A DNA stretch of 57,179 nt from an uncultured Candidatus Saccharibacteria bacterium (GTDB lineage: Bacteria; Patescibacteriota; Minisyncoccia; Phycocordibacterales; SW-6-46-9). Positions 7,061 to 52,530 of this stretch are shown here, piece by piece. Below the pieces are notes generated by a model, which was not told the DNA's origin, did no database searches, and was given only the letters and a program-made list of their open reading frames with translations. The DNA lies in NCBI GenBank assembly GCA_964534365.1, contig CAZHOI010000004.1, positions 1-57,179 on the forward strand. The letters run 5' to 3'. Position 1 is the first letter of the stretch, and every line of letters begins with the position of its first letter. Position numbers and translations under genes: made by a program.

Positions 7061-7183
7061 CTCGCACAAAACTTGGAAGTTTGTAAGTTCGGGTCGCCAT
7101 AAGCGAACCTTGCACAGATTTACGCTGCAGATTGCGGGTCGCCATAAGCGAACCTCGCACAAAACTGCTAGCAGTTTTGTGCG
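7061..7183. repeat. tRNA-3'-end-like tandem repeats with hairpin spacers
   Basis: gggtcgccataagcgaacct exact at 7091-7110 and 7136-7155; ctcgcacaaaact at 7061 and 7154; perfect 28-bp palindrome 7156-7183. Confidence 0.8.
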
Positions 7184-7250
7184 GGTGGAGAGAATCGAAC
7201 TCTCGACCACAGCTTGGAAGGCTGTTGTTATACCACTTAACTACACCCGC
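7180..7250 (-). tRNA. tRNA-Gly (TCC)
   Basis: GCGGGTG..CACCCGCA acceptor stem, anticodon arm acagc-CTTCCAA-gctgt, TTCGATT T-loop; no encoded CCA. Confidence 0.95.
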
Positions 7251-7274
7251 CCACTTATGCATAAGTGGGCGGGT
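7245..7274. repeat. Perfect 30-bp palindrome overlapping the tRNA-Gly(TCC) 5' end
   Basis: acccgcccacttatg|cataagtgggcgggt. Confidence 0.9.
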
Positions 7275-14860: not shown

Positions 14861-15802
14861 TTAATTGGTTGAGTGATATTTTTTATGAACCTCACGCAGC
14901 CTTTCATTAGTTACATGGGTATAAATTTGAGTAGTGGAAATATCGGCATGTCCTAATAAATTCTGCACGGAACGAATATCAGCTCCATTGCGTAGTAAAT
15001 CGGTCGCGTAGGCATGCCGCAATACATGAGGGGTGACCTTTTTGGAGATTCCAGCTTTTATACCTGCTCGCTTAACGATTCTTTCTATGGATCTAACACT
15101 CAATCGTAAAGACTCATCTACTTCAGCTGATTTTCTTAGCCGAACTAACAACGCCTCATCAATATCTATTCGTTTTTCTAAATAATGTTTTATGGATTGT
15201 TGAGCTGCCCTGTTGACAAATACCAATCGCACCTTGCCACCTTTACCTCGTATGCTAAATTCCCCATTTTCCCACCCACAATCGCGATTTAATTTGGCCA
15301 ATTCCGACACTCGCAGTCCAGAAGAATACAATAGCTCGATAATAACTTTATTTCTTAATCCCTTTTCAGAATCTTTGCTTTCATAAATTTTCCTTAGACG
15401 TTCTAATTCAGCCATAGAAATAAGGTCTAATTCACGATCGGGGACTTTTGCTAAATCAATTCGGTCTGGTGCTAGTGAATCAATTTTATTTCTAACCAAG
15501 AATTTCAATAGGTTACGTAATGCTATCAAGTGATAGTTTTGGGTATTTTTGGACAAAATCTGTCCTTTACCATTATCTATCCGGTTGAGTAGCAATTGAT
15601 ATTTTAAAACGACATTGTCTGTTATGTCTTTTGGATTTTTTGCATTTGTTAAATTGACAAATCTTTTTAAATAACGACGATAGTTTTTGATCGTATTGAT
15701 ACTACGTCCTTTCTGAACCTCAAGGTGTACTAGATAATTATTAATCCATTTTTGTAATTCAGAACGCTGGTTATTAGTTTGATCCTGAGTTTGTTTGGAC
15801 AC
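14861..15802 (-). CDS. XerC/XerD-type tyrosine recombinase
   Basis: N-terminal SAM-like domain; intact catalytic set GLRVSEL, GKGGK, HVLRH, LGH, TQIYTH. Confidence 0.9.
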   Translation of the reverse strand: MSKQTQDQTNNQRSELQKWINNYLVHLEVQKGRSINTIKNYRRYLKRFVNLTNAKNPKDITDNVVLKYQLLLNRIDNGKGQILSKNTQNYHLIALRNLLKFLVRNKIDSLAPDRIDLAKVPDRELDLISMAELERLRKIYESKDSEKGLRNKVIIELLYSSGLRVSELAKLNRDCGWENGEFSIRGKGGKVRLVFVNRAAQQSIKHYLEKRIDIDEALLVRLRKSAEVDESLRLSVRSIERIVKRAGIKAGISKKVTPHVLRHAYATDLLRNGADIRSVQNLLGHADISTTQIYTHVTNERLREVHKKYHSTN

Positions 15803-17184: not shown

Positions 17185-19122
17185 ATGTCAGATTCTATTC
17201 AAACTATTTCCTATGGCCAATCACAAATTAAAATCGATTATAACACCGGCGCGCATCACGCACATGGTTCGGTTATCGTATCCCGCGATGGCACCAGCGT
17301 TATCGTTTGCGCTACTTTCGGCCCTGATCCAGTAAATGATGAACTCAGTCAAGTTCCTTTGCAGGTTAATTACCTCGAGCCCTGGCAGGTAAAATGTGGA
17401 GATAAGAGTTGTCGCTCCTCACAATTAAGTCCAGATACTCAGGCAGCAAGATTAATTGATCGATCAATCAGGCCCCATCTGCCAGCTGGATTACAGCACC
17501 CGCTTAACTTGACGGTACAAGTATTGGCGAGCGGTTCGGCTGATATTGATGCCCTGTCAATTATCGGCAGCTCAATTGCGATTTCTAGGACTGGCCTGGA
17601 TTGGTCAGGGCCAATTGCGGCTAGTGCGGTTGAAATATGTCAAAATTATGATTTTCATATTAATGAAAAATCTATTAACCTAGCCGGGCGGCTGATGATG
17701 TCTGGATCAAATAATCTGGCCACTATGGCCGAATTTAAAGGGGTCGAGCTCTCGGAGGAAGTAGTATCTAAGGCATTGGTTCAGGCACTAGAAGCTAATA
17801 ATGCTTTTATCGAGGCCCTAAATAATAATAAAGAAACAATTGAAGATGCTAATGAAACAATTTTAAATATTAACAAACTAGCCGCCGAACATCAGCCTGA
17901 CCCAGATAAGTATGCAGAGCGCCTGGGGACTGGATATCGCGAAGACGGTCGCGGTAGCAAAGAATTAAGAGAGTTGGTGATTAAACCAAGCTACCTCGGT
18001 GGCGCTCACGGATCAGCTAAGCTTCAGCAGGATGAAACGACTGTTATTGCTGCCCTAACATTGGATAATCCGATCTCGCCTTTGGAGGGTCGTGCTAGTG
18101 CCGCGGTTAATGATGTTAAAAACACCAACCGCTTTATTGCAGAATGTCTGATAAATCCCAATGCGGCCGACCAGATGAATCAAACTAATCTGGCTTCTAT
18201 AAAAGAACATGATAGCGGCAGCTTACTTTACCAAGCCCTAGTGCCAGCACTGCCTGATGAAGGCGATTATCCATACCTGATCAAATTGGCTAGCCAGGTA
18301 ATATCCTCGGACGGATCGGCTGGCGTCGCATCAGTTGCAGCGGGATCCCTTGCCCTATATACGGCGGGGGTGCCGGTAAACAGTTTATGTGCTGGGGTAA
18401 ATATTGGATTGGCTGGATCAACAGATGAGCCTGTATTGTTAACTGATATTACCGACAGCGAGAAAGATCATGGTCAAATGCGCCTCGCAATTGCTGGAAC
18501 TACCAAGGGCATTAATGCTCTGCAGTTAGATACCAAAAATAATGGGGTGAGTTTAAAAAACTTTACCAACGCGCTTTCCAATGGCAAAGAAGCCAGAGCT
18601 GATATTATCGAGGCAATGCAAACTGCTGTAGCAGGTAGTGCCTATAACCATCCTGAAAATGCGCCCCTGATTGTTGAGATACCTCGCGAACATATTGGCC
18701 GATTAATCGGCAAAGGTGGTACTAATATCAGGCAAATTGAAGACTCTACCGAGGCCAAAATCACCGTAGAAAACAATCAATACGCTATTATTGAGGGCAG
18801 TAAAGACGCAAAAAACAAGGTGTTGGAAAAAATTGAAGCCGAAACTAGACATTATCATGTCGGCGAAGACTTCAAAGCTACAGTTCGCGAATTTCTGCCT
18901 TATGGCGCCATCGTCGAGCTGGAAGCAGGACGCGAAGCCCTATTGCACGTATCAGAATTACGTGATGCATATGTTGAGAAAACCGAAGATCTGTTAAAAG
19001 TAGGGGACGAAGTGCCGGTAACCATTGTCGAGACTTCCTCCGACGGAAGAATTAAGGTTTCAATCCGTGAAAAATACCCGGAATTTTTCAACGACTCCGC
19101 CACCACTCCCGATCAAATTTAA
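17185..19122 (+). CDS. pnp: Polynucleotide phosphorylase orthologue with degenerate active site (2 RNase PH + KH + S1)
   Basis: ARLIDRSIRP, REDGR, HGSA, LQLDTK, KH (IGRLIGKGGTNI) and S1 (GAIVEL..LLHVSEL) retained; position after rpsO; catalytic motifs altered. Confidence 0.85.
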   Translation: MSDSIQTISYGQSQIKIDYNTGAHHAHGSVIVSRDGTSVIVCATFGPDPVNDELSQVPLQVNYLEPWQVKCGDKSCRSSQLSPDTQAARLIDRSIRPHLPAGLQHPLNLTVQVLASGSADIDALSIIGSSIAISRTGLDWSGPIAASAVEICQNYDFHINEKSINLAGRLMMSGSNNLATMAEFKGVELSEEVVSKALVQALEANNAFIEALNNNKETIEDANETILNINKLAAEHQPDPDKYAERLGTGYREDGRGSKELRELVIKPSYLGGAHGSAKLQQDETTVIAALTLDNPISPLEGRASAAVNDVKNTNRFIAECLINPNAADQMNQTNLASIKEHDSGSLLYQALVPALPDEGDYPYLIKLASQVISSDGSAGVASVAAGSLALYTAGVPVNSLCAGVNIGLAGSTDEPVLLTDITDSEKDHGQMRLAIAGTTKGINALQLDTKNNGVSLKNFTNALSNGKEARADIIEAMQTAVAGSAYNHPENAPLIVEIPREHIGRLIGKGGTNIRQIEDSTEAKITVENNQYAIIEGSKDAKNKVLEKIEAETRHYHVGEDFKATVREFLPYGAIVELEAGREALLHVSELRDAYVEKTEDLLKVGDEVPVTIVETSSDGRIKVSIREKYPEFFNDSATTPDQI

Positions 19123-28653: not shown

Positions 28654-28752
28654 TCACCTAGATTCAATCTTCCTACTAAAAAACTTGCCCACCTTTAAGT
28701 AACTTTATAACGCGCTAAATAGCAATCTATAAGCTAAAATAGCTCTAATAAT

Positions 28753-34940: not shown

Positions 34941-37481
34941 GTGATTAAATGGTCGCGATTTTTATCAGTGGTTTACCATACAGTAGCGCGTTTTTTTAAA
35001 ACAATATTTTCCCGACTGCAATTATTTCTGACCAAAATAATTCAGTATAAATTTTCGATCATTACTATTGCTGTGGTCGCATTTATTGCGCTGCTGCCAG
35101 AAACTGCCTCGGCCAACATTAACTTTGGCTGTGGTGGGGTTGGAATAGGTGACGCTTTCCCGGATTTTCCGTGTTTATTAGGGCAAACCATGCTGCAATT
35201 AACCTCGGTATTTGCCTTTATTGCCGGTAATCTACTGGATTTGGTGACTAAATTATTTGTATTTGAAATGTCTACCACCCTGGAACAAGGGCAGCTGTTC
35301 GTTACGCCAGAAACTGGCGAATGGGCCGGGGTACCGGTATATCGCGCGATGTGGTTTATCGTGCGCGACCTTGCCAATTTGTCATTTATTTTTATTCTAA
35401 TTTATGCATCAGTGTCGATGATCTTTAACAATAAATTTGGACTAGATGCCAAAAAGATTGTCCCGCAGTTGGTACTAGTGGCAATACTCATGAATTTTTC
35501 ACTGTTTTTTGTACAGGTAGCCACAGATTTTTCCAACTATATTGCGTACCAGTTCTTTACCAATGTCGAAGTCCAGGTCTGGCAAAATGACGAGAATGAA
35601 GAGATTTTGATTGATCCTGAAACTGGCGAGCCGGCTTTTGTCCAAATCGGATCTACCGAATCAGGAGCCGCGACCCTGTCTGACATCATAATGAACGTTA
35701 CCAAGGTCACCGCGCTGGTGGCCAGCCCTGCCGATCTGGCCAGTTCGCAGGCAGCCAGTCGTAGTGCCGAGCTGGATCGTCAGCCCGGATTTGCGTTTGG
35801 ATTTTTTGCCAGTATATTCGTATTTTTTGCCGGTTTGGTTATGCTGGCTGGCGCATTTTTACTATTTCTGCGGTTTTTCATGATTTTGATATTTATGGTG
35901 TCGGCCCCAATTGCCTTTGCCTCTAGCATTGTCGAAGGAGGTAAAAACAAAGATAGTGGCAAAGGGTTGTTTAAAGGCTGGTGGTTGCCTGGACTAACCA
36001 ATCAATTGATTTTTGCACCGGCATATTTTGGACTGCTATATCTGGCCCTACAGTTTTTGCAAACGATTACTGATGCGGGGTTGGGCGCGCCCAAAGACTC
36101 GACCTTTGCCTATTGGGTTCAAAACGCCTTTATATTTATTGTGTCAGCTGCATTTCTGATTGCCGCTATATGGTATGCCAAAAGACTCTCGATTGCTGGT
36201 TCTAAACTAGCAGTAAATAACACTAAACGCATGTTTGCAGCAGGAGTTTTGGGTGGAGCTGGATTAGCAGGGCGTCAAACTATAGGGCGCTTATCAAATC
36301 GCTACCTAAACTCTAACCAAGATCGACTAAAACAAAGAATTGCAAGCGGTGGGGTTAGCGGTAAAATTGCCCGAATGCAATTAGATGCAGGTAAAAGGAT
36401 GACCAAAGCCAGTTTCGACGGACGACTAGCCCTTGATCGTATCCCAGGAATTAGAATGAATGAAATCTCTTATGGCAATCGTGATAGCCTCAAGAAAGGA
36501 TTCGGGGGAAGAAGAGCCGAAAAACTTGAGAAAGAAACCGAGAAGGTCGTAGACGTTGCACAAGCTCTAAATGAAAAGCAACGCGACCGTTACGCGAATA
36601 GGTTGATGTCACAAAAAACAGGGCTAAAGGGACTGTTCCAATTTATAACTCACAGTCAAGATGTTGAAACAGGAAAACTTGAACCTCGGCCCGGAGCAAA
36701 AAAACTACTGAACAAATATAATAATATTGTTATGGGCTTGGGCGGTTCACTAGAGGACAAATTACTTGAAGGAAGTCCTGGTTTAAGTAAGCGAAAAACA
36801 GCTGCTGCAGTAAATAGAACCAAGAATTTCTTAGCGCGTAATGAGCCAGTGTACGGTCAAGGGGCTGAGCCCGATTGGATTACAAAAGCGCAAGAAAGAG
36901 AAATAACCAAAAGGAAACATCAGGCTGAGGTTTTAATCGCAGAAAACGAACGAGAGGCCGCCACCTTAGAGCGCGAGATGGCTGAGCGTCAGGCAGAAGC
37001 TAAGAAACATGCTAACAGGCTTAAAGATTTACGTAAGAGGCTTGAAAGAGCGAGAGAGCTAGGAAATGAAACTGAGGTCAACCGATATGAAGGTGAATTG
37101 AATGATGAGCAGCAAAGATTGGCTGGAATAAACAATCAAATAAATACCAGGAACTCTCGGCTGAATACACTCAAAAAAGACACCGCCAGAATTCAAAAGG
37201 TGAAAAGTAGAAGAATAAACTCGGCAAGGGATGCATACAATCGAGATAGGACACAGATGCGTTACTCTAATGGAGGTTATATTAATTACAAATTAGGAAA
37301 CGCAATCTCTGGATCAAATTGGGAAAGAACTAAAACAAGTCTCAAGAAAAGAAAGGACGCAGATGAATATTTCAACCGTATGAAAGATGTCGTTAGTGAA
37401 GGGAACTTGAATGCTCCGGAAAAACGAACCGCTGCTGACGCTGGAGACTCAGAGGATTCTTCGGATGGAAACGAAAACTAA
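34941..37481 (+). CDS. VirB6/TrbL-like polytopic membrane protein with long basic coiled-coil C-tail
   Basis: W..VRDLAN..FIF, LV.VAIL.NFSLFF, multiple TM segments; context next to PrgI and VirB4. Confidence 0.7.
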   Translation: MIKWSRFLSVVYHTVARFFKTIFSRLQLFLTKIIQYKFSIITIAVVAFIALLPETASANINFGCGGVGIGDAFPDFPCLLGQTMLQLTSVFAFIAGNLLDLVTKLFVFEMSTTLEQGQLFVTPETGEWAGVPVYRAMWFIVRDLANLSFIFILIYASVSMIFNNKFGLDAKKIVPQLVLVAILMNFSLFFVQVATDFSNYIAYQFFTNVEVQVWQNDENEEILIDPETGEPAFVQIGSTESGAATLSDIIMNVTKVTALVASPADLASSQAASRSAELDRQPGFAFGFFASIFVFFAGLVMLAGAFLLFLRFFMILIFMVSAPIAFASSIVEGGKNKDSGKGLFKGWWLPGLTNQLIFAPAYFGLLYLALQFLQTITDAGLGAPKDSTFAYWVQNAFIFIVSAAFLIAAIWYAKRLSIAGSKLAVNNTKRMFAAGVLGGAGLAGRQTIGRLSNRYLNSNQDRLKQRIASGGVSGKIARMQLDAGKRMTKASFDGRLALDRIPGIRMNEISYGNRDSLKKGFGGRRAEKLEKETEKVVDVAQALNEKQRDRYANRLMSQKTGLKGLFQFITHSQDVETGKLEPRPGAKKLLNKYNNIVMGLGGSLEDKLLEGSPGLSKRKTAAAVNRTKNFLARNEPVYGQGAEPDWITKAQEREITKRKHQAEVLIAENEREAATLEREMAERQAEAKKHANRLKDLRKRLERARELGNETEVNRYEGELNDEQQRLAGINNQINTRNSRLNTLKKDTARIQKVKSRRINSARDAYNRDRTQMRYSNGGYINYKLGNAISGSNWERTKTSLKKRKDADEYFNRMKDVVSEGNLNAPEKRTAADAGDSEDSSDGNEN

Positions 37482-37486
37482 TAAAT

Positions 37487-38332
37487 ATGAATAAATTACC
37501 CCCAGAATTAAAACAACATCTGCAAAATATTCCTGATTTTATGAAGGATATCAGCCAGGTCAAGGAATTTGTAAGCACAGCTGATATTAAATTAACTGAT
37601 GACCAAAAAAGCGCTTTGCGTCTACAACTATTACTAGTCATGACTGGCCTCAAAGACTATCGTTTATTGCCAATAATCATCGAGGAATTTTGTGAACTGG
37701 ATTTTGAAGTATCAGCCTATATAGCTGACAGATTTATGGAAGAAGTGATCGAGCCAATGGGTTATGGATATTTATCAACGGTGTTAAAAGCAGCTAATAA
37801 TGAGGATGTTACCTTTGATCCTGATGACGTAGAAATCTTGCAGACCATATCTCAAGAGCTAGAAGACCAAGAAGGGGCCCCAGAAGTGCCAAAGCCGCCA
37901 AAGGTGGTGTCGCCAAAGTTGGTATTGAATCAAGATCAGAAACGCACCGCGTATCAGGATCTGCGAAATCAGGATTGGTACGAGAATTTACTGAACGAGC
38001 TGTATAAAAAACACAAAATCGGTGATGAGGCTGCCCGCGCACTGGAGCAGGTATTGCAGAAGGCTGTGATTGATGATGATACTACTGGCCTAAAGCGTTT
38101 GGCCACCAATCCGGCACTGGTACCGGTGTCACGAGACCTGCAGGACATCCATGATTATATAGAGGACAAATTTCAAGAAGTGTTAAGGGACATTCAGCAA
38201 AACACAGCCCCAAATCCAGGTATTGATAAAAATAATGATGGAAAGTCGGCTAAAACCCAGTCTAACATTGACCAAATCCGGCCCAAACCTCATCAGGATG
38301 ACCATGATCCGTACCGTGAAGAGGTCAAGTAG
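37487..38332 (+). CDS. Hypothetical acidic cytoplasmic protein of the T4SS-like locus
   Basis: 281-aa ORF, co-oriented; ends with DPYRE. Confidence 0.6.
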   Translation: MNKLPPELKQHLQNIPDFMKDISQVKEFVSTADIKLTDDQKSALRLQLLLVMTGLKDYRLLPIIIEEFCELDFEVSAYIADRFMEEVIEPMGYGYLSTVLKAANNEDVTFDPDDVEILQTISQELEDQEGAPEVPKPPKVVSPKLVLNQDQKRTAYQDLRNQDWYENLLNELYKKHKIGDEAARALEQVLQKAVIDDDTTGLKRLATNPALVPVSRDLQDIHDYIEDKFQEVLRDIQQNTAPNPGIDKNNDGKSAKTQSNIDQIRPKPHQDDHDPYREEVK

Positions 38333-38347
38333 CATATATCATAAAAC

Positions 38348-38698
38348 ATGGAGCAGAAAACCTTTCACGAAAAGCTATCAAACAAAATCGAGACTTTTAT
38401 TCACCAGTCATACGATATTGCTAATCAATTTCCAAAAGAAGAACTATACGGAGCAGGTTCACAACTTAAACGTGCAGCACTTTCGATCGGCTTAAACACG
38501 ACCGAAGGTTATGCTAGATCAAGCAGTAAGTCGTATCGTCACTTTTTATTAATTGCCTATGGGTCATTAAAAGAAAGTTTGTATGTTATTAACTTTTCTT
38601 CAAAGCGCTCTTGGATTACCACCAAACAATCGCAAGATCTTCTAGATAAAGGTGATGAATTGGGAAAAATGTTATGGAGCATTATCTCGAAACTGTGA
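38348..38698 (+). CDS. Four helix bundle protein (23S rRNA IVP-like family)
   Basis: FPKEELYGAGSQLKRAALSIGLNTTEGYAR, FLLIAYGSLKE. Confidence 0.9.
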   Translation: MEQKTFHEKLSNKIETFIHQSYDIANQFPKEELYGAGSQLKRAALSIGLNTTEGYARSSSKSYRHFLLIAYGSLKESLYVINFSSKRSWITTKQSQDLLDKGDELGKMLWSIISKL

Positions 38699-38725
38699 TC
38701 GTGCTTTATGCTTTGTGTTACATGA

Positions 38726-38758
38726 GCACTTGATAATTATTGTATAATTATCAAGTGC
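38726..38758. repeat. Perfect 15-bp inverted repeat over the prgI -10 box and GTG start
   Basis: gcacttgataattat-tgt-ataattatcaagtgc. Confidence 0.9.
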
Positions 38759-39174
38759 AGCATCAAACTCCGCAATTTATCGATATCGAAGACAAGGTGG
38801 TTGGACCGTTTACGGTCAAGCAATTTATTTATTTGATCGCCGGGGGAGGGGCCGCGTTTTTGCTGTTTCGATTTTTGCCATTTTTCTTGTTTTTAGTGGT
38901 AGCAACTCCTATTGTGTCGTTATTTTTGGCCCTGGCATTTTACAAACACAATGAACGTCCGTTTGTTCATTTGGTTGAGTCAGTTTTTAAATATTTGGTC
39001 AACACCAGGTTATATCTGTGGCGCCACCGCAAGCCAACTGACGTCGCCCGTGAACAGGCCAGTGTGCAAGCACCGCAAAAAACCAAAGTGGTTAATTCAG
39101 GGGCGGGCATGGGATCATCAAAGCTAAAGGATCTTTCTTGGAACCTAGAAGTCAAGAAAGAGGATCTTTCTTGA
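38755..39174 (+). CDS. PrgI family protein (T4SS VirB3-like membrane component)
   Basis: PQFIDIEDKVVGPFTVKQFIYL, two TM helices, LAFYK.NERPF; GTG start 6 nt after tataat. Confidence 0.85.
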   Translation: MQHQTPQFIDIEDKVVGPFTVKQFIYLIAGGGAAFLLFRFLPFFLFLVVATPIVSLFLALAFYKHNERPFVHLVESVFKYLVNTRLYLWRHRKPTDVAREQASVQAPQKTKVVNSGAGMGSSKLKDLSWNLEVKKEDLS

Positions 39175-39179
39175 CTTCT
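39147..39179. repeat. Perfect 15-bp inverted repeat over the prgI stop
   Basis: agaagtcaagaaaga-gga-tctttcttgacttct. Confidence 0.9.
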
Positions 39180-39194
39180 GACTTGAACCAGAAC

Positions 39195-39581
39195 ATGTAC
39201 ACGGACAACACAAGTATAAAACCAGATGGATTTAGATTTCTTAAGTGGCAAATTTATGACGATGCTCAAAATTTATATTTAGAAATAAATACAATCACTA
39301 AAGATCTGCCAAAAGCTATGCGATTTGAAGCCACCTCTCAACTGTTACGATCAAGCCATTCTGTAGTTTTAAACATAGCTGAAGGAGCTGGAAAAGAGTC
39401 CGATAAAGAACTTAGGACGTTTTTGTCAATTTCAATGGGTTCGCTGTATGAAACCGTGGCTTGCCTTGATTCATTGGTGAAACTTAACTTGATTAAAGAA
39501 AGTGAATTCCAAAATTTAAAGGCTCGTTACAATAAATTAGCGTCTCAAATAGGAGGTTTTAGAAAGTCTTTGAAACAGTAG
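39195..39581 (+). CDS. Four helix bundle protein (second copy, divergent)
   Basis: FRFLKWQIY, SQLLRSSHSVVLNIAEGAG, FLSISMGSLYETVACLD; start set to the ATG at 39195. Confidence 0.9.
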   Translation: MYTDNTSIKPDGFRFLKWQIYDDAQNLYLEINTITKDLPKAMRFEATSQLLRSSHSVVLNIAEGAGKESDKELRTFLSISMGSLYETVACLDSLVKLNLIKESEFQNLKARYNKLASQIGGFRKSLKQ

Positions 39582-39608
39582 TTATTCTTGTCCCAGTTCT
39601 TGTCCAGG

Positions 39609-39636
39609 TAACTTTTGCTATAATTAGCAAAAGTTA
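39609..39636. repeat. Perfect 12-bp inverted repeat over the -10 box and start of the 39636 gene
   Basis: taacttttgcta-taat-tagcaaaagtta. Confidence 0.85.
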
Positions 39637-40271
39637 TGGCTGAACCCCTCAAAGCACCAGCGACGCAAAACTTTGTTCCGGTGAAAGAAATCCGTGATGG
39701 GGTAGTGATATTGAAAAATAATTCATTGTGTGCGGTATTATTGGCTTCATCACAAAACTTTGCCCTTAAATCCGGCGACGAGCAGACCGGGGTATTAATG
39801 CAATTTCAAAATTTTCTAAATTCACTGGATTTTCCAGTACAGATTGTAGTGCAATCACGCAAAGCTGATATTCGACCCTATATCCAAATGTTGGAAGAGC
39901 GCCTGAAAACTCAAACCAATGAACTGTTACGGGTGCAAAACTATGAATACATCCGATTTGTGCAGTCGTTCGTTGAACAGGTAGATATTATGAAAAAGTC
40001 ATTTTTCGTAGTAGTACCTTATAATCCCGCTATCGCAGACACTACATCAATCACCTCCTTGGTCAAAGGTAAATCAACTGATGATCAACTAACGCTCGAG
40101 CGCTTTGAAGAGTTCCGCACCCAGCTAAATCAGCGATTGGCTATTGTCGAGTCAGGACTTAATCGTTCAGGTATTCGCACCTTGGCGTTAGGAACCGATG
40201 AACTGATCGAGTTGTTCTATCACACCCTAAACCCTGCTGATGCTACGTCAAATGCCCCAGTAAGCAGCTAG
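39636..40271 (+). CDS. VirB4/TraC-associated protein (resembles the N-terminal part of conjugative ATPases)
   Basis: TQ.FVPVKEIRDGVVILK, S.NFALKS.DEQ, FLNSLDFPVQIVVQSRK.DI.PY; lies directly upstream of VirB4. Confidence 0.7.
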   Translation: MAEPLKAPATQNFVPVKEIRDGVVILKNNSLCAVLLASSQNFALKSGDEQTGVLMQFQNFLNSLDFPVQIVVQSRKADIRPYIQMLEERLKTQTNELLRVQNYEYIRFVQSFVEQVDIMKKSFFVVVPYNPAIADTTSITSLVKGKSTDDQLTLERFEEFRTQLNQRLAIVESGLNRSGIRTLALGTDELIELFYHTLNPADATSNAPVSS

Positions 40272-40378
40272 CTGCTTACTGACAACTAATAAAATCTGAG
40301 TCGCTTAGTGATTTCTTAGATTGTAAGTAGTTAGTTGTAGGTGGTAGGAGGTTAAAATTAGATGCTATAATTTTAACC
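40258..40378. repeat. Gene-less palindromic cassette between the 39636 gene and VirB4
   Basis: 24-bp perfect palindrome 40258-40281; nested stems; 7-mer array 40321-40348; 11-bp inverted repeat 40350-40360/40368-40378. Confidence 0.8.
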
Positions 40379-40380
40379 AC

Positions 40381-42180
40381 ATGGGACTTCTGGACTTTAT
40401 AAAATCTGATGACAAACCCGAGCCAGCAGCGGCTGATTCTGGTATCAGCAGCCTGGCATTGTCGGATGTGATTGCTCCATCTGCGCTCGAGATCAAGCCC
40501 AAATCAGTTAACGTATCTGGTAAATTGGCCCGAACGTTATTTGTAATTTCTTATCCCCGTTTTTTAACTGACGGCTGGTTTGCCCCGATTATCAACCTGG
40601 ATCGAATCTTTGACGTTTCACTGCATATTCATCCGGTAGATACTGGGGATTTATTAAAGAAATTCCAGAAAAAAGTAGCCGAGGTTGAATCACAAATCTC
40701 TATACGGCAAGAAAAGGGCATGGTGCGCGACCCAAAATTGGAAACCGCTTATCGTGATCTGGAAAATTTGCGTGATCAGTTAATGCAGGCCCAGGAAAAA
40801 ATGTTTGATGTCGGTCTCTACCTAACTATTTATGCCGATAATGAAACCGATTTAAATAAATTTGAATCCGAAATCAAATCAATTCTCGAGTCCAAATTGA
40901 TTTATCTGAAACCCGCCCTATTTCAGCAAGAACAAGGCCTGCAAACAGTACTACCGACCGCTACTGACGCCCTGCAGGTTCAGTCCAAACTAAACTCGTC
41001 CCCGTTATCGAGCCTATTTCCATTTTTATCCTTTGATTTGTCATCAGACACCGGGATTCTTTACGGTATCAATCGACATAATTCCGGATTGATCTTATTC
41101 GATCGATTTTCAATGCCCAATTACAATTCGATCACCTTTGCGACCTCTGGAGCGGGTAAATCATTTGCCACGAAGCTCGAGCTACTACGATCAATGATGT
41201 TTGATATTGACGTGATTGTGATTGACCCCGAGCGCGAATACGAATATTTGGCCGAGGCGGTAGGGGGCCGGTATTTCAATATCTCATTATCGTCCGAACA
41301 CCACATCAACCCATTTGATATTCCACCGGTCGGCCCAGATGAATCACCCGAGGACGTCTTGCGGTCACATATCATCTCTTTGGTGGGATTATTTCGCATT
41401 ATGTTAAGCGGACTTACTCCTGAAGAAGATTCGATAATAGACCAGGCGATTACCGAGACCTACGCCCTCAAAGACATCAATCCGGGAATTGATTTTAGTC
41501 AAGCCGAGCCACCACTGTTGTCAGATTTCGAACTGGTATTAGCCGGTATCGAAGGGGCCGAAAATATTCTAGCGCGACTGGCCAAATACACTCGTGGTAC
41601 CTGGTCTGGATTTCTGAATCGTCCGTCAAATGTCGATATTAATAAGAAGTTTATTGTTTTTTCGGTGCGTGACATGGAGGACGAGCTAAAACCAGTCGCC
41701 ATGCATTTGATTACTAACTTTATCTGGAACCGAGTGAGGCGTGAACTGCGCAAACGAATTTTGGTAATTGACGAGGCCTGGTGGATGATGAAAGAAGAAG
41801 ATACGGCATCATTTTTATTTGGTCTAGCCAAACGAGGTCGTAAATACTATCTGGGTGTATCAACCATTACCCAGGACGTCGGCGATTTCCTGCGGTCGCC
41901 ATATGGTTTGCCAATTATCACTAACTCGTCAATCCAGCTTTTGTTAAAACAATCGCCAACTTCAATTGATTTACTGCAAGAGACTTTTAACCTAACTGAT
42001 GAAGAAAAATATCTGCTGTTGGAATCAGGGGTAGGCGAGGGCATATTCTTTGCCGGTTTAAAGCACGTAGCCATTCGCATTATTGCGTCCAATACCGAAT
42101 CCCAAATCATAACCTCGGACCCATCCGAGATACTGGCGATTAAAAAGGCCAAACAGCAATTTGCTGACAGTAATGAATAA
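40381..42180 (+). CDS. VirB4/TraC-family type IV secretion ATPase
   Basis: Walker A ATSGAGKS, IDPEREY, HHINPFD, Walker B LVIDEAW, GRKYYLG...ITQDV.DFL. Confidence 0.9.
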   Translation: MGLLDFIKSDDKPEPAAADSGISSLALSDVIAPSALEIKPKSVNVSGKLARTLFVISYPRFLTDGWFAPIINLDRIFDVSLHIHPVDTGDLLKKFQKKVAEVESQISIRQEKGMVRDPKLETAYRDLENLRDQLMQAQEKMFDVGLYLTIYADNETDLNKFESEIKSILESKLIYLKPALFQQEQGLQTVLPTATDALQVQSKLNSSPLSSLFPFLSFDLSSDTGILYGINRHNSGLILFDRFSMPNYNSITFATSGAGKSFATKLELLRSMMFDIDVIVIDPEREYEYLAEAVGGRYFNISLSSEHHINPFDIPPVGPDESPEDVLRSHIISLVGLFRIMLSGLTPEEDSIIDQAITETYALKDINPGIDFSQAEPPLLSDFELVLAGIEGAENILARLAKYTRGTWSGFLNRPSNVDINKKFIVFSVRDMEDELKPVAMHLITNFIWNRVRRELRKRILVIDEAWWMMKEEDTASFLFGLAKRGRKYYLGVSTITQDVGDFLRSPYGLPIITNSSIQLLLKQSPTSIDLLQETFNLTDEEKYLLLESGVGEGIFFAGLKHVAIRIIASNTESQIITSDPSEILAIKKAKQQFADSNE

Positions 42181-47526: not shown

Positions 47527-47546
47527 TACTGCGATATATCGCAGTA
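47527..47546. promoter_or_regulatory. 20-bp perfect palindrome, copy 1
   Basis: tactgcgatatatcgcagta followed 4 nt later by tgttataac. Confidence 0.8.
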
Positions 47547-47651
47547 GTAGTGTTATAACTACATAATTTACTAAATTAGCAAAGTATTTAATCTTCTTAA
47601 ACCCGTTAGGAGAATAAAAACTAAGACGTAAAACCATTAAAGAATGATGGG

Positions 47652-47671
47652 TACTACGATATATCGTAGTA
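47652..47671. promoter_or_regulatory. 20-bp perfect palindrome, copy 2, over the promoter of the TrpR-like gene
   Basis: tactacgatatatcgtagta followed 4 nt later by tgttataat (extended -10, 47676-47684). Confidence 0.8.
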
Positions 47672-47694
47672 ATGGTGTTATAATAGATTTCGAT

Positions 47695-48099
47695 ATGCCT
47701 CATATTTCAAATCGTAAGATTTCTGATAAGGTCAGCCATAAAATTAATACTAACTTGGCTGGAATGTTCAATCACGCTGCAAAAACCAATAATACAGCTG
47801 CCGTGGTACGGGAACTTTTAACCGATACTGAACAGATTATGTTGGCCAAACGCTTAGGAGCAGTCTATCTTTTAGGTCAAGACCTTAGTAATTACAAAAT
47901 CAGTCAGATATTAAAAATGAGCGAATCAACCATTGCACGTATCGCGGTTAGTAGGGAAGCTGGAGCTTTTGACACCATTAAAAGTTTACTAAGTAAAAAT
48001 ACTCAAAATCAACCCTTTATTGATGTAATAGACCAAATTATTACCTTTTTACCCTCAAAAGCTAATAGAAAGTTCCGCGGTCAGATTCACAATAAATAA
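47695..48099 (+). CDS. TrpR-like (YerC/YecD-type) helix-turn-helix protein
   Basis: LLTDTEQIMLAKRL.A..LL....S.Y.ISQ.LKMS.STIARI; start set to MPHIS, 10 nt after the -10 box. Confidence 0.8.
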   Translation: MPHISNRKISDKVSHKINTNLAGMFNHAAKTNNTAAVVRELLTDTEQIMLAKRLGAVYLLGQDLSNYKISQILKMSESTIARIAVSREAGAFDTIKSLLSKNTQNQPFIDVIDQIITFLPSKANRKFRGQIHNK

Positions 48100-48127: not shown

Positions 48128-48147
48128 CACTACGATATATCGCAGTA
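48128..48147. promoter_or_regulatory. 20-bp palindrome, copy 3 (hybrid of copies 1 and 2)
   Basis: cactacgatatatcgcagta, 28 nt after the stop of the TrpR-like gene. Confidence 0.75.
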
Positions 48148-48284
48148 TAATCGATCCATTTGTTTAGCTAATATATTAAGATAAAGCGACTTAACTAATC
48201 GTGGGATGTTTGACTCAGAAATTTGAAATGCCTCGATTATTTTGTAAAGCTTAGATAACACCTTGTCTTTATTGGTATAAATTC

Positions 48285-49762: not shown

Positions 49763-51124
49763 ATGGAAAAAAAGACGGATGACAGAACGCTAAGTGATTT
49801 GTGGGAGGCGGTGTTGGCATCCATCAAAGAAGACGTACCCGACGCTACATATAAAACCTGGTTCAAAGACACTTTCATAACCGCTTATAAAAACAACGAG
49901 ATATCTATTGGTGTCCCCAGCGAATTCGTGCGCAGCTGGTTGCACGAAAAATATCGCACTATGGTGCTGAAGAAATTACGTGATGAACATCCGTCTATTC
50001 GATCGGTTCAGTTTTCGATATCGCGCAAGCGCTTGCCCAGGCAATCAACTGCCAAGCAAAAACTGGTTCCCGAAAAAACTGGTTCCCTGCAGCTACAAAA
50101 CTACTATATTGACCGCAAAAATAATTTAAATCCACGCTACACCTTTGATAATTTTGTTATTGGACCTTTTAATGAGTTGGCCTTTGCCGCCTCCCAGGCG
50201 GTTATCAAAAATCCGGGCACAGCTTATAACCCATTATTTATCTATGGTAAAACCGGCCATGGCAAAACTCATCTGATTCAGTCGGTTGGAAATTATATTA
50301 AAGATAACTTTGAATTAAGTGTCTTTTATTTAACTTCCGAAAAATTTGCCCTTGATTATATTAGCGCAGTAAAAACTCAAGCTGTCGAGGCTTTCAAAGA
50401 ACGTTATCGACGTTACGACGTATTAATTATGGATGACGTGCAATTTTTTGCCAATAAAGAAAAAACCCAAGAAGAATTATTCCACTTGTTTAATTATCTT
50501 TATGACAAAAATAAACAGATCGTATTTTCTTCTGATATGCATCCAAATTATGTTAATGGCCTAGAAGATCGACTACGATCGAGGTTTGCGGCCGGAATGA
50601 TTGTTGATATTCCTTCACCTGATCACGAATCCCGAGTGGCATTACTACAAGCCAAATCTTCCGCAGGAGGCATTAGGCTGGAAAATGACGTAATCGATTT
50701 TCTAGCCAATTCAATCGAAGGTAACGTCAGGGAATTAGAGGGGGTGATTAATTCTGTGGTTGTCCAAACTCAACTAAAAGATCGCCCCCTTAGTTTAAAT
50801 GAGGTTAAAAATCTGATCAGAAATTCGATAAAAACTAAAAAAGCTGTCTCGGTAGAGAATATCTTGCAAATCGTGGCTGATTATTATGGTATTGAGCCCG
50901 AACTAATTTTGAAAAAAACCCGACGTAAAGAGGTGGTCAAACCTCGGCAGATAGCAATGTATATTTTGCGTGAAGATTTCTCGATTGCGTATCCGACGAT
51001 TGGTCAGAAATTAGGGGGTCGCGATCACACTACTGTCATCCACTCTTATGAAAAAATCAAAACTGAATTAAAAACTGATTCGGAATTAGTACAGCAAATC
51101 AACCAATTACGAACCATGATATAA
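49763..51124 (+). CDS. dnaA: Chromosomal replication initiator DnaA
   Basis: LNPRYTFDNFV.G..N..A, YNPLFIYGKTGHGKTHL, DDVQF, RLRSRF, GNVRELEG, GGRDHTTVIH. Confidence 0.98.
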   Translation: MEKKTDDRTLSDLWEAVLASIKEDVPDATYKTWFKDTFITAYKNNEISIGVPSEFVRSWLHEKYRTMVLKKLRDEHPSIRSVQFSISRKRLPRQSTAKQKLVPEKTGSLQLQNYYIDRKNNLNPRYTFDNFVIGPFNELAFAASQAVIKNPGTAYNPLFIYGKTGHGKTHLIQSVGNYIKDNFELSVFYLTSEKFALDYISAVKTQAVEAFKERYRRYDVLIMDDVQFFANKEKTQEELFHLFNYLYDKNKQIVFSSDMHPNYVNGLEDRLRSRFAAGMIVDIPSPDHESRVALLQAKSSAGGIRLENDVIDFLANSIEGNVRELEGVINSVVVQTQLKDRPLSLNEVKNLIRNSIKTKKAVSVENILQIVADYYGIEPELILKKTRRKEVVKPRQIAMYILREDFSIAYPTIGQKLGGRDHTTVIHSYEKIKTELKTDSELVQQINQLRTMI

Positions 51125-51432
51125 GGGGATAACTAGGGTGATAAGTTAATAATAAGTCTGGGGAAAACGTCTTTATTTTAGCTGGGCAGCTGTGAGTAAT
51201 ATAGACCTTGACAGAGGCTACCCACAAGTTAAGCCCGACGTGATGGTGCTAGTCCACTTGGTCAAATCGAACAATCACGGTTGGTAGGGCTCTTAGTTAA
51301 AGAGTTTTACCCACTATCAACAGGCCTAATAGTAGTAATAGATTCTTTTAATAAATACCTTATTTAATAACTAGCTGCAGACAAAAAACGATATCAGTTT
51401 TTTTATAAGGATATAAAAGCTATAATTTGTTT
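51125..51432. other. Probable replication origin oriC (dnaA-dnaN intergenic region)
   Basis: Degenerate DnaA boxes at 51124, 51159, 51191, 51218; tandem ttacccact/ctatcaaca 51307-51322, then ggcc, NTA trinucleotide repeats and an AT-rich tract. Confidence 0.75.
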
Positions 51433-52530
51433 ATGATCATTACCGTTTCCACTCAAGCATTATTTCAACTAGTAAGTAAAACCGACCGAGTTACCTCGCG
51501 AAAATCAGCTCTACCTATCTTGAGTAATATTCTATTTACAATTTCTGGTCAAACCTTATTCATAAGAGCTACCAATTTGGAAATCGGTGTCGAGGGCGAA
51601 ATTAATTTGGAAACAAAAGTCGATTCTGATACCAGCTTTGTTATCGATGCTGGCTTGCTGAAGAATTTTCTACAACAAGTTAAAAATGGTGGCAAAACCA
51701 CAATCGAGATTTCTGAATCTAGTGCCACATTTAAAACTGCTAAATCCGAAGCCTTAATTGCTATTCAAGATGGTGGCGATTTTCCTACCCTGCCTACTAT
51801 TCAAGATGACCATACCAAATTGAGCCTTCCAGCCGATGAGTTTGTACAGGGAATTATCTCAGTAAATTACGCTTCAGCTACTTCGACAATGAAGCCCGAG
51901 CTATCAAGTATTTATATACATACCCATAATGGGGAATTGTTTTTTGTGGCGACTGACACTTTTAGATTGGCCGAAAGAGTATTGCCAAGTCGGTCATTTA
52001 ATGACCAAATATCATTACTAGTGCCAAGTGCTAATGCTTTGGAATTAACTAAGCTAATCGAACCAGAAGACGAGCTAGAGCTACAATTTGATTCTAATCT
52101 ATTACAGATTAATCAACATAAACTAAAACTTACCGCTCGCGTGGTAGATGGAAATTTTCCCGATTATCGCCAAATTATACCGGCTGAATTTGATGTCAAA
52201 GCCACTGGTTTATTTCATGACCTAGAGTCAGCTCTACGTCTATCATCTATTTTTGCCGATAAATATTATCAGGTTACGCTGGATTTTAAAGATGATTCAT
52301 TAATCCTAGAATCCAAGGGTTCTGAACAGGGCAAATCGATAACATCGGTTCCAGTTTCAATCGATGGTCAGAATGTCGAATCTAAATTCAATCAAAAGTA
52401 TTTAATTGAGCCTCTGTCATCACTCAAAGGAGACAATGTAGTATTTGAGTTATCCCCCAACAAACCAATGATGATGAGCAATCCCGCTGACAATACGTTT
52501 CGTTATCTAGTAATGCCAATGCATCAATAG
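51433..52530 (+). CDS. dnaN: DNA polymerase III beta sliding clamp
   Basis: LPILSNIL, ATNLEIG, FPTLP, ATDTFRLAE, DGNFPDY..IIP, Y.VMPM; ATG 6 nt after tataat. Confidence 0.95.
   Translation: MIITVSTQALFQLVSKTDRVTSRKSALPILSNILFTISGQTLFIRATNLEIGVEGEINLETKVDSDTSFVIDAGLLKNFLQQVKNGGKTTIEISESSATFKTAKSEALIAIQDGGDFPTLPTIQDDHTKLSLPADEFVQGIISVNYASATSTMKPELSSIYIHTHNGELFFVATDTFRLAERVLPSRSFNDQISLLVPSANALELTKLIEPEDELELQFDSNLLQINQHKLKLTARVVDGNFPDYRQIIPAEFDVKATGLFHDLESALRLSSIFADKYYQVTLDFKDDSLILESKGSEQGKSITSVPVSIDGQNVESKFNQKYLIEPLSSLKGDNVVFELSPNKPMMMSNPADNTFRYLVMPMHQ

Follow-up and report, generated by a model that had tools for sequence, protein, structure and literature searches.

The nature of the intervening sequences (IVS) of ribosomal RNA (rRNA) and of the S23p open reading frame (ORF) has been open since about 1990, and they have been called selfish elements, transposon relics, or useful (PMC4990558). 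In Coxiella burnetii, the terminal inverted repeats of the IVS form a stem of 28 base pairs (bp) with the S23p ORF in its loop; the ORF is preceded by tandem heptamers (GACAGAT), the stem is cleaved by RNase III, and the GC content is below that of the genome (PMC4990558). Family members in rRNA insertions of candidate-phyla bacteria have been noted before (PMC11270868). In addition, 23S_rRNA_IVP genes were described in CRISPR-cas operons, for example between cmr3 and cmr2, and the authors took this as a sign of a functional link to the cas genes (Zhang et al. 2014, PMC3936711). Here, we analyse genes of this family in contig CAZHOI010000004.1 (assembly GCA_964534365.1) of an uncultured Candidatus Saccharibacteria bacterium, a stretch of 57,179 nucleotides (nt) that we call the window. 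Three consecutive junctions of a row of secretion genes in the window hold an insert, and five perfect hairpins stand at the boundaries between these inserts and the host genes. We propose that the three are inserts of the 23S rRNA IVS kind placed between protein genes, and that the hairpins are local inverted duplications, possibly serving as transcript insulators, a reading that we judge about evenly poised between right and wrong.

Cassettes at three junctions of a secretion-gene row

Two of the inserts, both on the plus strand, are cassettes with a four-helix-bundle gene. The first lies ahead of the host gene prgI. Its left repeat array (38333-38353; CATATAT, CATAAAA, CATGGAG) includes the start codon of gene 1 (IVP1; 38348-38698, 116 amino acids), whose product matches PF05635 (E 2.7e-25) and TIGR02436 (E 9.5e-27), and its right array (38699-38725; TGCTTTA, TGCTTTG, TGTTACA) is the inverted counterpart of the left one. 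Together the arrays form an imperfect inverted repeat with 20 Watson-Crick and 2 G.U pairs over 27 positions. The duplex of the two flanks has a free energy of -23.8 kcal/mol, and only one of 24 non-cognate upstream flanks pairs equally well with the downstream flank. The sequence CATAAAACATGGAGCA of the left array also opens a related cassette in the prgI|traC-like junction of L190, one of the related loci, which carry L numbers here.

The second cassette lies between prgI and a traC-like gene. Its left end (39180-39194) reads GACTTGA followed by ACCAGAAC, with the conserved terminus AACCAGAAC; the same terminus, in the form AACC(A/T)GAAC(TT)ATG, stands ahead of the related genes of L176 and L164 at a different junction. 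Gene 2 (IVP2; 39195-39581, 128 amino acids) matches PF05635 (E 8.6e-28) and TIGR02436 (E 1.2e-27) as well as the Xanthomonas protein XCC0516 in the PDB (2GSC, E 1.3e-7), and no -10-like hexamer was found upstream of it, indicating that it is promoterless. The right array (39582-39608) is a direct repeat in which TTCTTGTCC occurs twice, and the right terminus GTCCAGGT occupies 39602-39609. This terminus recurs as GTCCAGGT(T/A)A after the related gene of L176, and it persists alone in the ORF-less prgI|traC-like junction of L164. The translations of gene 1 and gene 2 both contain the RxxxSxxxNxxE motif (from PMC3936711).

The third insert (40282-40349, plus strand) is an ORF-less stem-loop of the intervening-sequence type, in which ACAACTAA at the start pairs with GTAAGTAGTTAGTTGTAGG at the end, and it is a cassette remnant. 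For the junction that holds it (40255-40383), the predicted fold has an energy of -43.1 kcal/mol (z -5.8) and includes a long-range stem of about 16 bp, four of them G.U pairs. The GC content is 0.37 in gene 1, 0.35 in gene 2 (0.30 at third codon positions, GC3) and 0.33 in the stem-loop, compared with 0.42-0.445 in the host genes of the window. The first-pass annotation of this DNA had seen inserts at three junctions and described the third as lacking a gene. The inserts are real, considering that the corresponding junctions of insert-free relatives measure 8-18 nt (medians), and the third is not empty, as it holds the stem-loop. The two genes had been called unrelated; both belong to PF05635/TIGR02436.

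The host genes are prgI (VirB3-like; 38755-39174, plus strand; PF12666, E 2.9e-9), the traC-like gene, which corresponds to the N-terminal part of VirB4 (39636-40271, plus strand; PF26593), and a virB4-like gene for the P-loop part of the ATPase (40381-42180, plus strand; PF19044, E 3e-26). The matches of the traC-like protein to VirB4-family NCBIfam models lie under the model cut-offs. This gene order is kept across about 160 related Paceibacteria loci, and virB4-like orthologues are 70-93% identical in >160 loci. The 160 loci, all of them in Paceibacteria/Parcubacteria genomes or metagenomes, were collected by way of VirB4 homologues with 70-76% identity, and closer relatives (VirB4 88-93% identical) were fetched later via the traC-like protein. 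They are a convenience sample, with 80 of >570 matches kept per search; gene starts in them are approximate, and hairpin counts refer to perfect stems only. Insert-free junctions of the relatives have a median length of 18 nt at prgI|traC-like and 8.5 nt at traC-like|virB4, and in L171, the insert-free locus nearest to the window (VirB4 93%), the three junctions measure 21, 41 and 15 nt and are free of hairpins. An Rfam search of 37400-40900 at E up to 1 gave no match, rRNA included.

A profile built from the two window proteins was used to search 1.7 Mb of related loci with 6-kb flanks on each side. It recovered 24 further family members, all 24 of them before prgI, in prgI|traC-like or in traC-like|virB4, and none elsewhere in the 6-kb flanks. 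Occupancy of these three junctions differs among close relatives. The window carries genes in the first two and the ORF-less stem-loop, in a junction of 109 nt, in the third. L176 has a gene before prgI, an ORF-less prgI|traC-like junction of 124 nt and a tight traC-like|virB4 junction; L177, whose VirB4 is 97% identical to that of L176, has the same ORF-less 124 nt and tight junction, with a 91-nt spacer and no gene before prgI. L164 has a gene before prgI, an ORF-less 79 nt in the second junction and a tight third one, and all three junctions of L171 are tight. The closest match of gene 2 (63% identical) is at another junction, before prgI in L164, with the cassette termini kept. Relatives of gene 1 were found in uvrD|ksgA (L182, 2476-2901), in ftsK|recA (L186, 2470-2931) and in the twin arrangement of L190. 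The window's own uvrD|ksgA junction (28654-28752) is empty. The more distant L190 (1620-3680) resembles the window in having four-helix-bundle genes before and after prgI. An ORF-less stem of 137 nt, built of GAAT-type heptamers, precedes its virB4, and mirrored hairpins cover two stop codons, one of 9 bp at the upstream stop ahead of the first cassette and one of 14/16 at the traC-like stop ahead of the ORF-less element.

The build of these cassettes is regular. ORFs in the relatives are bracketed by tandem repeats of about 7 nt upstream and their reverse complement downstream, and the repeat unit varies by cassette (GCTTTCA, CAACAAC, TTAAAAA, GAACAGN, NNGGAAT, GGCTTAT). Inverted heptamer repeats bracket the ORF over 26 nt in L182 and 36 nt in L186, and ahead of the RND pump gene of L169 (1-600) an inverted heptamer repeat of 45 nt folds at -68 kcal/mol. 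Across 25 cassettes, cognate flanks pair with a mean duplex energy of -27.6 kcal/mol, compared with -18.9 kcal/mol for non-cognate flanks (permutation p < 1e-4). Nearly all cassettes (26/27, p 4e-7) are co-oriented with the host genes, 3/27 have a -10-like hexamer near the start, and in the reversed cassette (L042) the arrays are reversed along with the ORF. Arrays of the CAACAAC type were found in each of the three junctions, with reversed orientation in L042, while uvrD|ksgA and two junctions of the type IV secretion system (T4SS) share AAACATG arrays. ORF-less versions of 79-137 nt, with arrays in both orientations, stand in junctions of L164, L176, L177 and L190.

These observations suggest that the inserts behave as a mobile family, as the first-pass annotation had supposed, in that the same junctions are reoccupied, types are shared across junctions, and occupancy differs in close relatives. 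Judging from the pattern across these loci, each cassette is acquired or lost as a whole. L176 and L177 were compared as a filled and empty pair before prgI, but their spacers are too diverged to give exact boundaries, and no direct target duplications were seen at the boundaries, where the same divergence leaves no clean empty site.

Hairpins at the boundaries of the cassettes

The five hairpins reported in the first-pass annotation are all present at the junctions of the window; each is 100% complementary, and their sequences are mutually unrelated. In RNA folding they reach -10 to -21.5 kcal/mol with z from -4.3 to -6.4. Three of them, H1, H3 and H5, stand at gene starts. H1 (38726-38740 / 38744-38758) has 15-bp perfect arms and a 3-nt loop (-18.5 kcal/mol, z -6.4), with the -10 box TATAAT (38743-48) at the apex and the prgI GTG (38755-57) in the 3' arm. 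This GTG takes the same position as the ATG of relatives, whose orthologues begin M-x-F-Q-x-P-Q. H3 (39609-39620 / 39625-39636) has 12-bp perfect arms and a 4-nt loop (-15.4 kcal/mol, z -6.0), with the extended -10 TGCTATAAT at the apex, and the last base of its 3' arm is the A of the traC-like ATG (39636). H5 (40350-40360 / 40368-40378) has 11-bp perfect arms and a 7-nt loop (-10.4 kcal/mol, z -4.6); the extended -10 TGCTATAAT lies in its loop and upper 3' arm, and it ends 2 nt before the virB4 ATG (40381). A two-codon mini-ORF (ATG CTA TAA) lies in the H5 loop with GGAGG 10 nt before it (40347-40370), which may be chance. Among the relatives, a -10 hexamer stands 4-13 nt before the start in 60% of prgI and 55% of traC-like genes, compared with 5% at random coding positions. 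A -10 box close to the start is a host feature of prgI and the traC-like gene, with or without an insert, and is unusual for virB4.

The other two hairpins overlap stop codons. H2 (39147-39161 / 39165-39179) has 15-bp perfect arms and a 3-nt loop (-21.5 kcal/mol, z -5.3) and spans the prgI stop (39172-74), so that only the last part of its 3' arm falls outside the prgI frame. The 5' arm consists of the conserved codons for ...LEVKKE, and the mirrored 3' arm encodes the last residues and the stop; the PrgI C-termini of relatives (L176, L177, L164, L179) read W-x-LEVK-D/K-ED-xx. The prgI tail (39121-39173) also contains a 20-nt direct repeat (AAGCTAAAGGATCTTTCTTG / AAGAAAGAGGATCTTTCTTG, 33 nt apart), and the 9-mer TCTTTCTTG occurs in it forward, reverse and forward again, giving H2 an alternative 9-bp partner upstream. 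H4 (40258-40269 / 40270-40281) is a 24-bp perfect palindrome of 12+12 without a loop, centred on the traC-like TAG stop (40269-71); its left half is host coding sequence for P-V-S-S-stop, and its right half is the mirror. The traC-like C-terminus ...SAPVSS is common to the window and its closest relative, P0010. The closest relative as a locus, L180, shares this C-terminus (APVSS) without the palindrome. In L046 this gene end carries a palindrome of 48 bp, centred on AGCTAGCT as in H4.

The position of the hairpins relative to the arrays is precise. H1 starts 1 nt past the right array of cassette 1, H2 ends just before the left end of cassette 2, H3 begins on the last base of the right terminus of cassette 2, which thereby reaches 1 nt into the hairpin, and H4 and H5 flank the ORF-less element. 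The sixth boundary, left of cassette 1 (38333-38347), has no local hairpin and pairs with the far side of cassette 1 instead. In the start hairpins the constrained host arm is the 3' arm, from the -10 box to the start codon, and in the stop hairpins it is the 5' arm, with conserved coding sequence. Each hairpin is thus a constrained host segment with an adjoining exact inverted copy, immediately outside the cassette array. The first-pass annotation had drawn the hairpins as half cassette and half host DNA, and this has to be revised, because they lie just outside the terminal repeat arrays. Its observation that each hairpin mirrors its own neighbour was correct.

Such hairpins far exceed chance in the window as a whole. 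The 57 kb contain 12 perfect hairpins with arms >=10 nt, compared with a mean of 0.63 and a maximum of 2 in dinucleotide shuffles, and five of the 12 fall in 2 kb (Poisson P 9e-5 on the window's own density, 5e-11 against the shuffles). Three other contigs from independent assemblies carry the locus, identical over 12.6 kb. Because the independent assemblies agree over the region, an assembly artefact was ruled out as the source of the hairpins; being identical, the three contigs offer no strain-level polymorphism. A genome-wide promoter design was also rejected, since among about 55 genes of the window a start-abutting hairpin was found only at prgI, the traC-like gene and virB4, plus one operator-like site. 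A tRNA-Gly gene in the window has a start-type hairpin resembling those of these three genes. This tRNA-Gly(UCC) gene (7179-7250, minus strand) is bracketed by zero-loop palindromes at 7156-7183 (14+14) and 7245-7274 (15+15), each overlapping a tRNA end by 5-6 nt, the same gene-end-mirror design as at prgI, the traC-like gene and virB4. A 20-nt direct repeat, GGGTCGCCATAAGCGAACCT, lies near it at 7093 and 7137.

Origin and possible role of the hairpins

In the relatives, stop hairpins are commoner at expanded junctions. Junctions of <=40 nt carry a perfect stop hairpin in 1/199 cases and a start-abutting one in 0/199, and a perfect stop hairpin is found at 8/101 expanded junctions versus 1/199 tight ones (p 9e-4). 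The presence of the same hairpins in insert-free relatives, which the first-pass annotation had named as counting against its proposal, was not observed, L171 having none, and this check therefore does not refute it. A perfect stop-overlapping hairpin is present in 5/26 genes followed by a cassette (19%) versus 53/1647 others (3.2%; odds ratio 7, p 0.0016), although the automated gene set behind the 5/26 missed the window's prgI and L152. At the upstream boundary, about 20-25% of the relatives' cassettes have a perfect hairpin, and at the downstream boundary none was found outside the window's own clade. Hairpins also stand at junctions with ORF-less spacers (L047 third junction, L072, L164 second junction, L177 first junction), and one of 11 bp overlaps a stop in L065, where the junction is tight and free of cassettes.

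Start-abutting hairpins are restricted to the window's own clade and have arms of 15 bp (prgI), 12 bp (traC-like) and 11 bp (virB4) in the window, 11 bp at the traC-like gene of L164, 13 bp at prgI of L177, 9 bp at virB4 of L180 and 7 bp at prgI of L176. Their sequences are unrelated, the -10 box is at the apex, and within the window's clade they occur only at expanded junctions (L164, L177 and, weaker, L176). L180 is an additional case, in which the 9-bp virB4 hairpin is of unrelated sequence with TGATATAAT at its apex, abuts the ATG, and lies at a junction rearranged by inversion. A weaker exception to the clade limit is the distant L110, with a 9-bp zero-loop palindrome at the prgI start.

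Comparison of sister loci points to the process behind the mirrored arms. In L053 the stop codon runs straight into the array, whereas its sisters L152 and L155 (VirB4 86-87% identical to L053) have 13-15 additional bases there, which in each case mirror the locus's own host codons for ...YRE.... Mirror arms were found inserted beside conserved codons for DPYRE of the upstream gene (L129, L152, L155), TEKPI of the traC-like gene (L006) and APVSS (window). The mirrored arm is extra DNA relative to hairpin-free sisters and is therefore a templated inverted duplication. L176 shows the reversed direction, in that here it is the conserved cassette terminus CAGGTTA that is mirrored, by the prgI leader. 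Loops <=2 nt are found in 62 of the 168 perfect hairpins of these genomes; because no RNA hairpin needs such loops, they mark DNA-level palindromes. About 75-80% of cassettes have no boundary hairpin and some cassette-free genes have one, so hairpins are not an obligatory product of insertion. Templated inverted duplication looks like a common mutational process in this group, to judge from these sequences, visible where spare non-coding DNA adjoins constrained sequence. The inverted target duplications of the first-pass annotation thus stand as templated inverted duplications, while insertion as their generator is not supported, given hairpins at about 20-25% of cassettes and hairpins without cassettes. 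The interpretation of the first-pass annotation is on the whole upheld in part.

On this basis, our proposed explanation runs as follows. Each of the two complete cassettes is a promoterless PF05635 ORF between short inverted arrays of about 7-nt units, and the third insert is an ORF-less stem-loop; they occupy p281|prgI, prgI|traC-like and traC-like|virB4 of the conserved Paceibacteria row. The cassettes would be transcribed by read-through from the upstream host gene, and the long-range stem of the arrays may fold the cassette out of the transcript, where RNase III may cleave the stem in the way known from rRNA. The first-pass annotation had offered, as one option, a cassette family selected to fold out of the transcript; the candidate structure for this is the long-range stem of the arrays and not the five local hairpins. 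The inverted copies would be made by fold-back or template-switch synthesis and tolerated in the new spacer DNA that the cassette brings. Their persistence is the least certain step: the hairpins would bound each host gene as a transcript of its own. A 3' hairpin would terminate the upstream mRNA ahead of the cassette or shield it from 3' exonucleases, and a hairpin round the -10 box would stop or mask read-through from the cassette, with the host promoter restarting within the 3' arm. Since this start lies inside the 3' arm and leaves a short leader, a transcript from the gene's own -10 box cannot form the hairpin. The window is chromosomal, near dnaA and dnaN, and encodes an RNase Y-like KH-HD protein and PNPase (49763-52530, 4635-6122, 17185-19122); given these two genes, the 3' hairpins could matter for mRNA decay. 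A GC-skew profile was uninformative for relating the locus to the nearby dnaA.

Several points weigh against this explanation. A consensus scan for promoters and terminators recognised no intrinsic terminator in any of the five hairpins, and no T run follows any of the five 3' arms. Termination, insulation and RNase III cutting at this locus are parts that we infer from the DNA. The long-range stem of IVP2 is no better than non-cognate pairs, and the stems of the window's two cassettes are weak. In the flanking repeats, 16 G.U and 19 A.C mismatches were counted. This lack of a G.U excess gives no signal of selection on an RNA stem, and terminal repeats at the DNA level could account for the arrays. 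Similarity of flank 6-mers follows protein identity with rho 0.14 overall and about 0 across different junctions; because this correlation is weak or absent, the conclusion that arrays travel with the ORF rests on individual cases. No transposase was found in or near the cassettes. The explanation also leaves the coincidence of five hairpins in one genome unaccounted for, and the enrichment beside cassettes (odds ratio 7) fits an insertion-linked mechanism as well.

Such a mechanism would have cassette integration or excision itself make the palindromes, with broken host ends folding back or being hairpin-capped and then copied. This would agree with mirror arms set exactly between host and array to the left and right of both cassette 2 and the ORF-less element, with left arrays that begin 0-1 nt past the 3' arm in eight relatives, with the roughly 7-fold commoner hairpins before cassettes than at other gene ends, and with perfect Watson-Crick arms, some of them loopless (H4, L046, L152), as templated synthesis gives. 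However, the roughly 75-80% of cassettes without a boundary hairpin speak against it, with no decayed trace in L053, L114, L121, L005 and L135, as do the bare left side of cassette 1, arm lengths that vary from 9 to 24 nt, and the like hairpins at L065, at 3.2% of gene ends and at both ends of tRNA-Gly. Moreover, the hairpins of the sisters L152 and L155 occupy the same site but differ in sequence according to the host codons of each locus, so that regeneration or homogenisation after insertion is needed in any case. Accordingly, we consider an origin by integration or excision rather unlikely.

A wider conjecture, which we hold to be decidedly unlikely as a whole, is that S23p/IVP cassettes form a distinct kind of small mobile element of rRNA helices and protein-gene junctions. 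Their fold-back or hairpin integration would leave inverted target duplications, the four-helix-bundle protein would recognise its own heptamer arrays, and the window would hold the freshest footprints.

The five local hairpins could also be sites at which RNase III or another double-strand RNase cuts read-through RNA into monocistronic pieces, for which the intercistronic RNase III sites of the phage T7 early region are the model. A hairpin at every gene boundary from cassette 1 to virB4, perfect stems of 11-15 bp (16-24 bp in relatives), the lack of T runs, and an element family cut by RNase III in rRNA would suit this view. Yet stems of 11-12 bp are short for RNase III, the three promoter hairpins are absent from transcripts begun at their own -10 boxes, and perfect symmetry through the centre is unneeded for an RNA site. 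In addition, no RNase III gene was found among the ORFs scanned in the window, which is 57 kb of the genome. We therefore regard cleavage sites as quite improbable.

Still more improbable, in our view, is that palindromes at gene ends and promoters came first and that cassettes landed beside the stem-loops. Cassette-free stop hairpins do exist at low frequency (3.2% of genes; L065, L029), a terminator hairpin often precedes prgI in insert-free relatives (L007, L033, L056), the arrays begin directly past the 3' arm, and in true IVS the insert takes the place of an rRNA helix loop (PMC4990558). However, the tight junctions, which are the sites that become occupied, carry a hairpin in 1/199 cases, most cassettes have no adjacent hairpin, and the downstream hairpins over -10 boxes would be left unexplained.

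Finally, it is scarcely credible that the palindromes are operators of dimeric regulators or attC-like sites of an integron-style array: their perfect dyad symmetry, an operator-like palindrome family elsewhere in the window (47527, 47652, 48129), and one palindrome after each gene from cassette 1 to the traC-like gene, resembling an integron array, would fit, but both versions were ruled out by the unrelated sequences, which would need five different regulators, and by the perfect stems, which lack the conserved core sites and extrahelical bases of attC, while prgI and the traC-like gene are fixed host genes in >150 loci and the sole recombinase of the window, XerC/D-like (14861-15802), lies 23 kb away. 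The operator-like family is the 20-bp palindrome TACTRCGATATATCGYAGTA, present three times (47527-47546, 47652-47671, 48129-48148) and each time followed by a -10-like box. Its copies surround a small gene (47644-48099) without a Pfam match, which looks like an autoregulated repressor with its operators.

Some related loci show other rearrangements. Among close relatives, prgI alone is on the opposite strand in L179 (2327-2755), and in L180 (1-188, 1390-1471) the pair of prgI and the traC-like gene is inverted relative to the 5' end of virB4 and the 3' end of the upstream gene; each is a single contig. The prgI gene of L180 is bracketed by a 17-nt inverted repeat (236-252 / 702-718). If the inversions of L179 and L180 are real, they suggest that junction repeats also promote rearrangement of host genes. 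In L166-L168 (198-2240) a PDDEXK_3 nuclease domain separates two GatB_N halves of the gatB product, which suggests an insertion inside a housekeeping gene.

With about 30 related cassettes, this locus shows rRNA-IVS architecture outside rRNA genes, in junctions of protein genes, with a strong preference for three junctions of one secretion-gene row. Their mobility, dependence on read-through and excision from the transcript become testable with metagenomic population data and metatranscriptomes. Caution is also advisable in that a four-helix-bundle gene inside an operon, whether CRISPR-cas or T4SS, does not have to work together with the genes next to it. The boundary palindromes offer a compact natural case of templated inverted duplication in reduced genomes, and they may show a host insulating its genes from an intruding cassette.

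Comparison with known systems

Our literature searches found no account of IVS-like flanks or mobility of these genes outside rRNA genes, and none of a hot spot at VirB3/VirB4 junctions, of occupancy differences among close relatives, or of boundary palindromes. The IVP genes between cmr3 and cmr2 are members of the same family wedged between operon genes, whereas flanking repeats, mobility and boundary hairpins are absent from that account (PMC3936711). With Avd of diversity-generating retroelements the window proteins share a related four-helix-bundle fold; IVP1 scores 36 bits against PF22296 bAvd (cut-off 40) and 31 bits against NF033474 (cut-off 80). Neither a reverse transcriptase nor the template and variable repeats that accompany Avd in such elements turned up in the ORFs and sequences scanned in the 57-kb window. 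Compared with integron cassettes, the stems here are perfect and share no common core sequence, and the XerC/D-like gene is the only tyrosine recombinase of the window. Compared with DNA transposons, the cassettes have inverted ends of the array type, and some termini (AACCAGAAC ... GTCCAGGT) are conserved between junctions.

Class C group II introns insert beside stem-loops or terminators. In the same way, an insert here may start directly past a gene-end hairpin; unlike those introns, the cassettes have no intron RNA, reverse transcriptase or Rfam match, and most have no adjacent hairpin. Exact inverted copies of neighbouring sequence also result from quasipalindrome or template-switch mutation and from hairpin-forming transposition, with its palindromic P-nucleotide footprints, and both can perfect or lengthen a palindrome. 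The perfect arms, the loops of zero length and stop-codon seeds such as AGCTAGCT agree with this. On the other hand, these are candidate processes rather than elements, and arms of 11-24 nt are long for P nucleotides.

The first-pass annotation had linked the family to the IVS of 23S rRNA, and the relatives' cassettes support this, as they share the build of the Coxiella IVS. Relative to S23p-type IVS (Leptospira, Coxiella burnetii, XCC0516 family), the cassettes differ in standing between the protein genes p281, prgI, traC-like and virB4 and not in 23S rRNA helix 9, 25 or 45, so that the host transcript is an mRNA, and those of the window differ further in combining weak long-range stems with perfect local hairpins outside their ends. 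The ORF in the loop of a terminal-inverted-repeat stem is seen in the relatives (p < 1e-4; repeats of 26-45 nt in L169, L182, L186 and L190) and is weak in the window. Heptamers at the ORF start are found both in IVP1 (CATATAT CATAAAA CATGGAG) and in relatives (GCTTTCA, CAACAAC, GAACAGN, NNGGAAT). The cassettes further share with S23p-type IVS the PF05635/TIGR02436 family, an element length of about 430-480 nt, a GC content below that of the host, ORF-less short forms, and a sporadic distribution suggesting transfer (PMC4990558).

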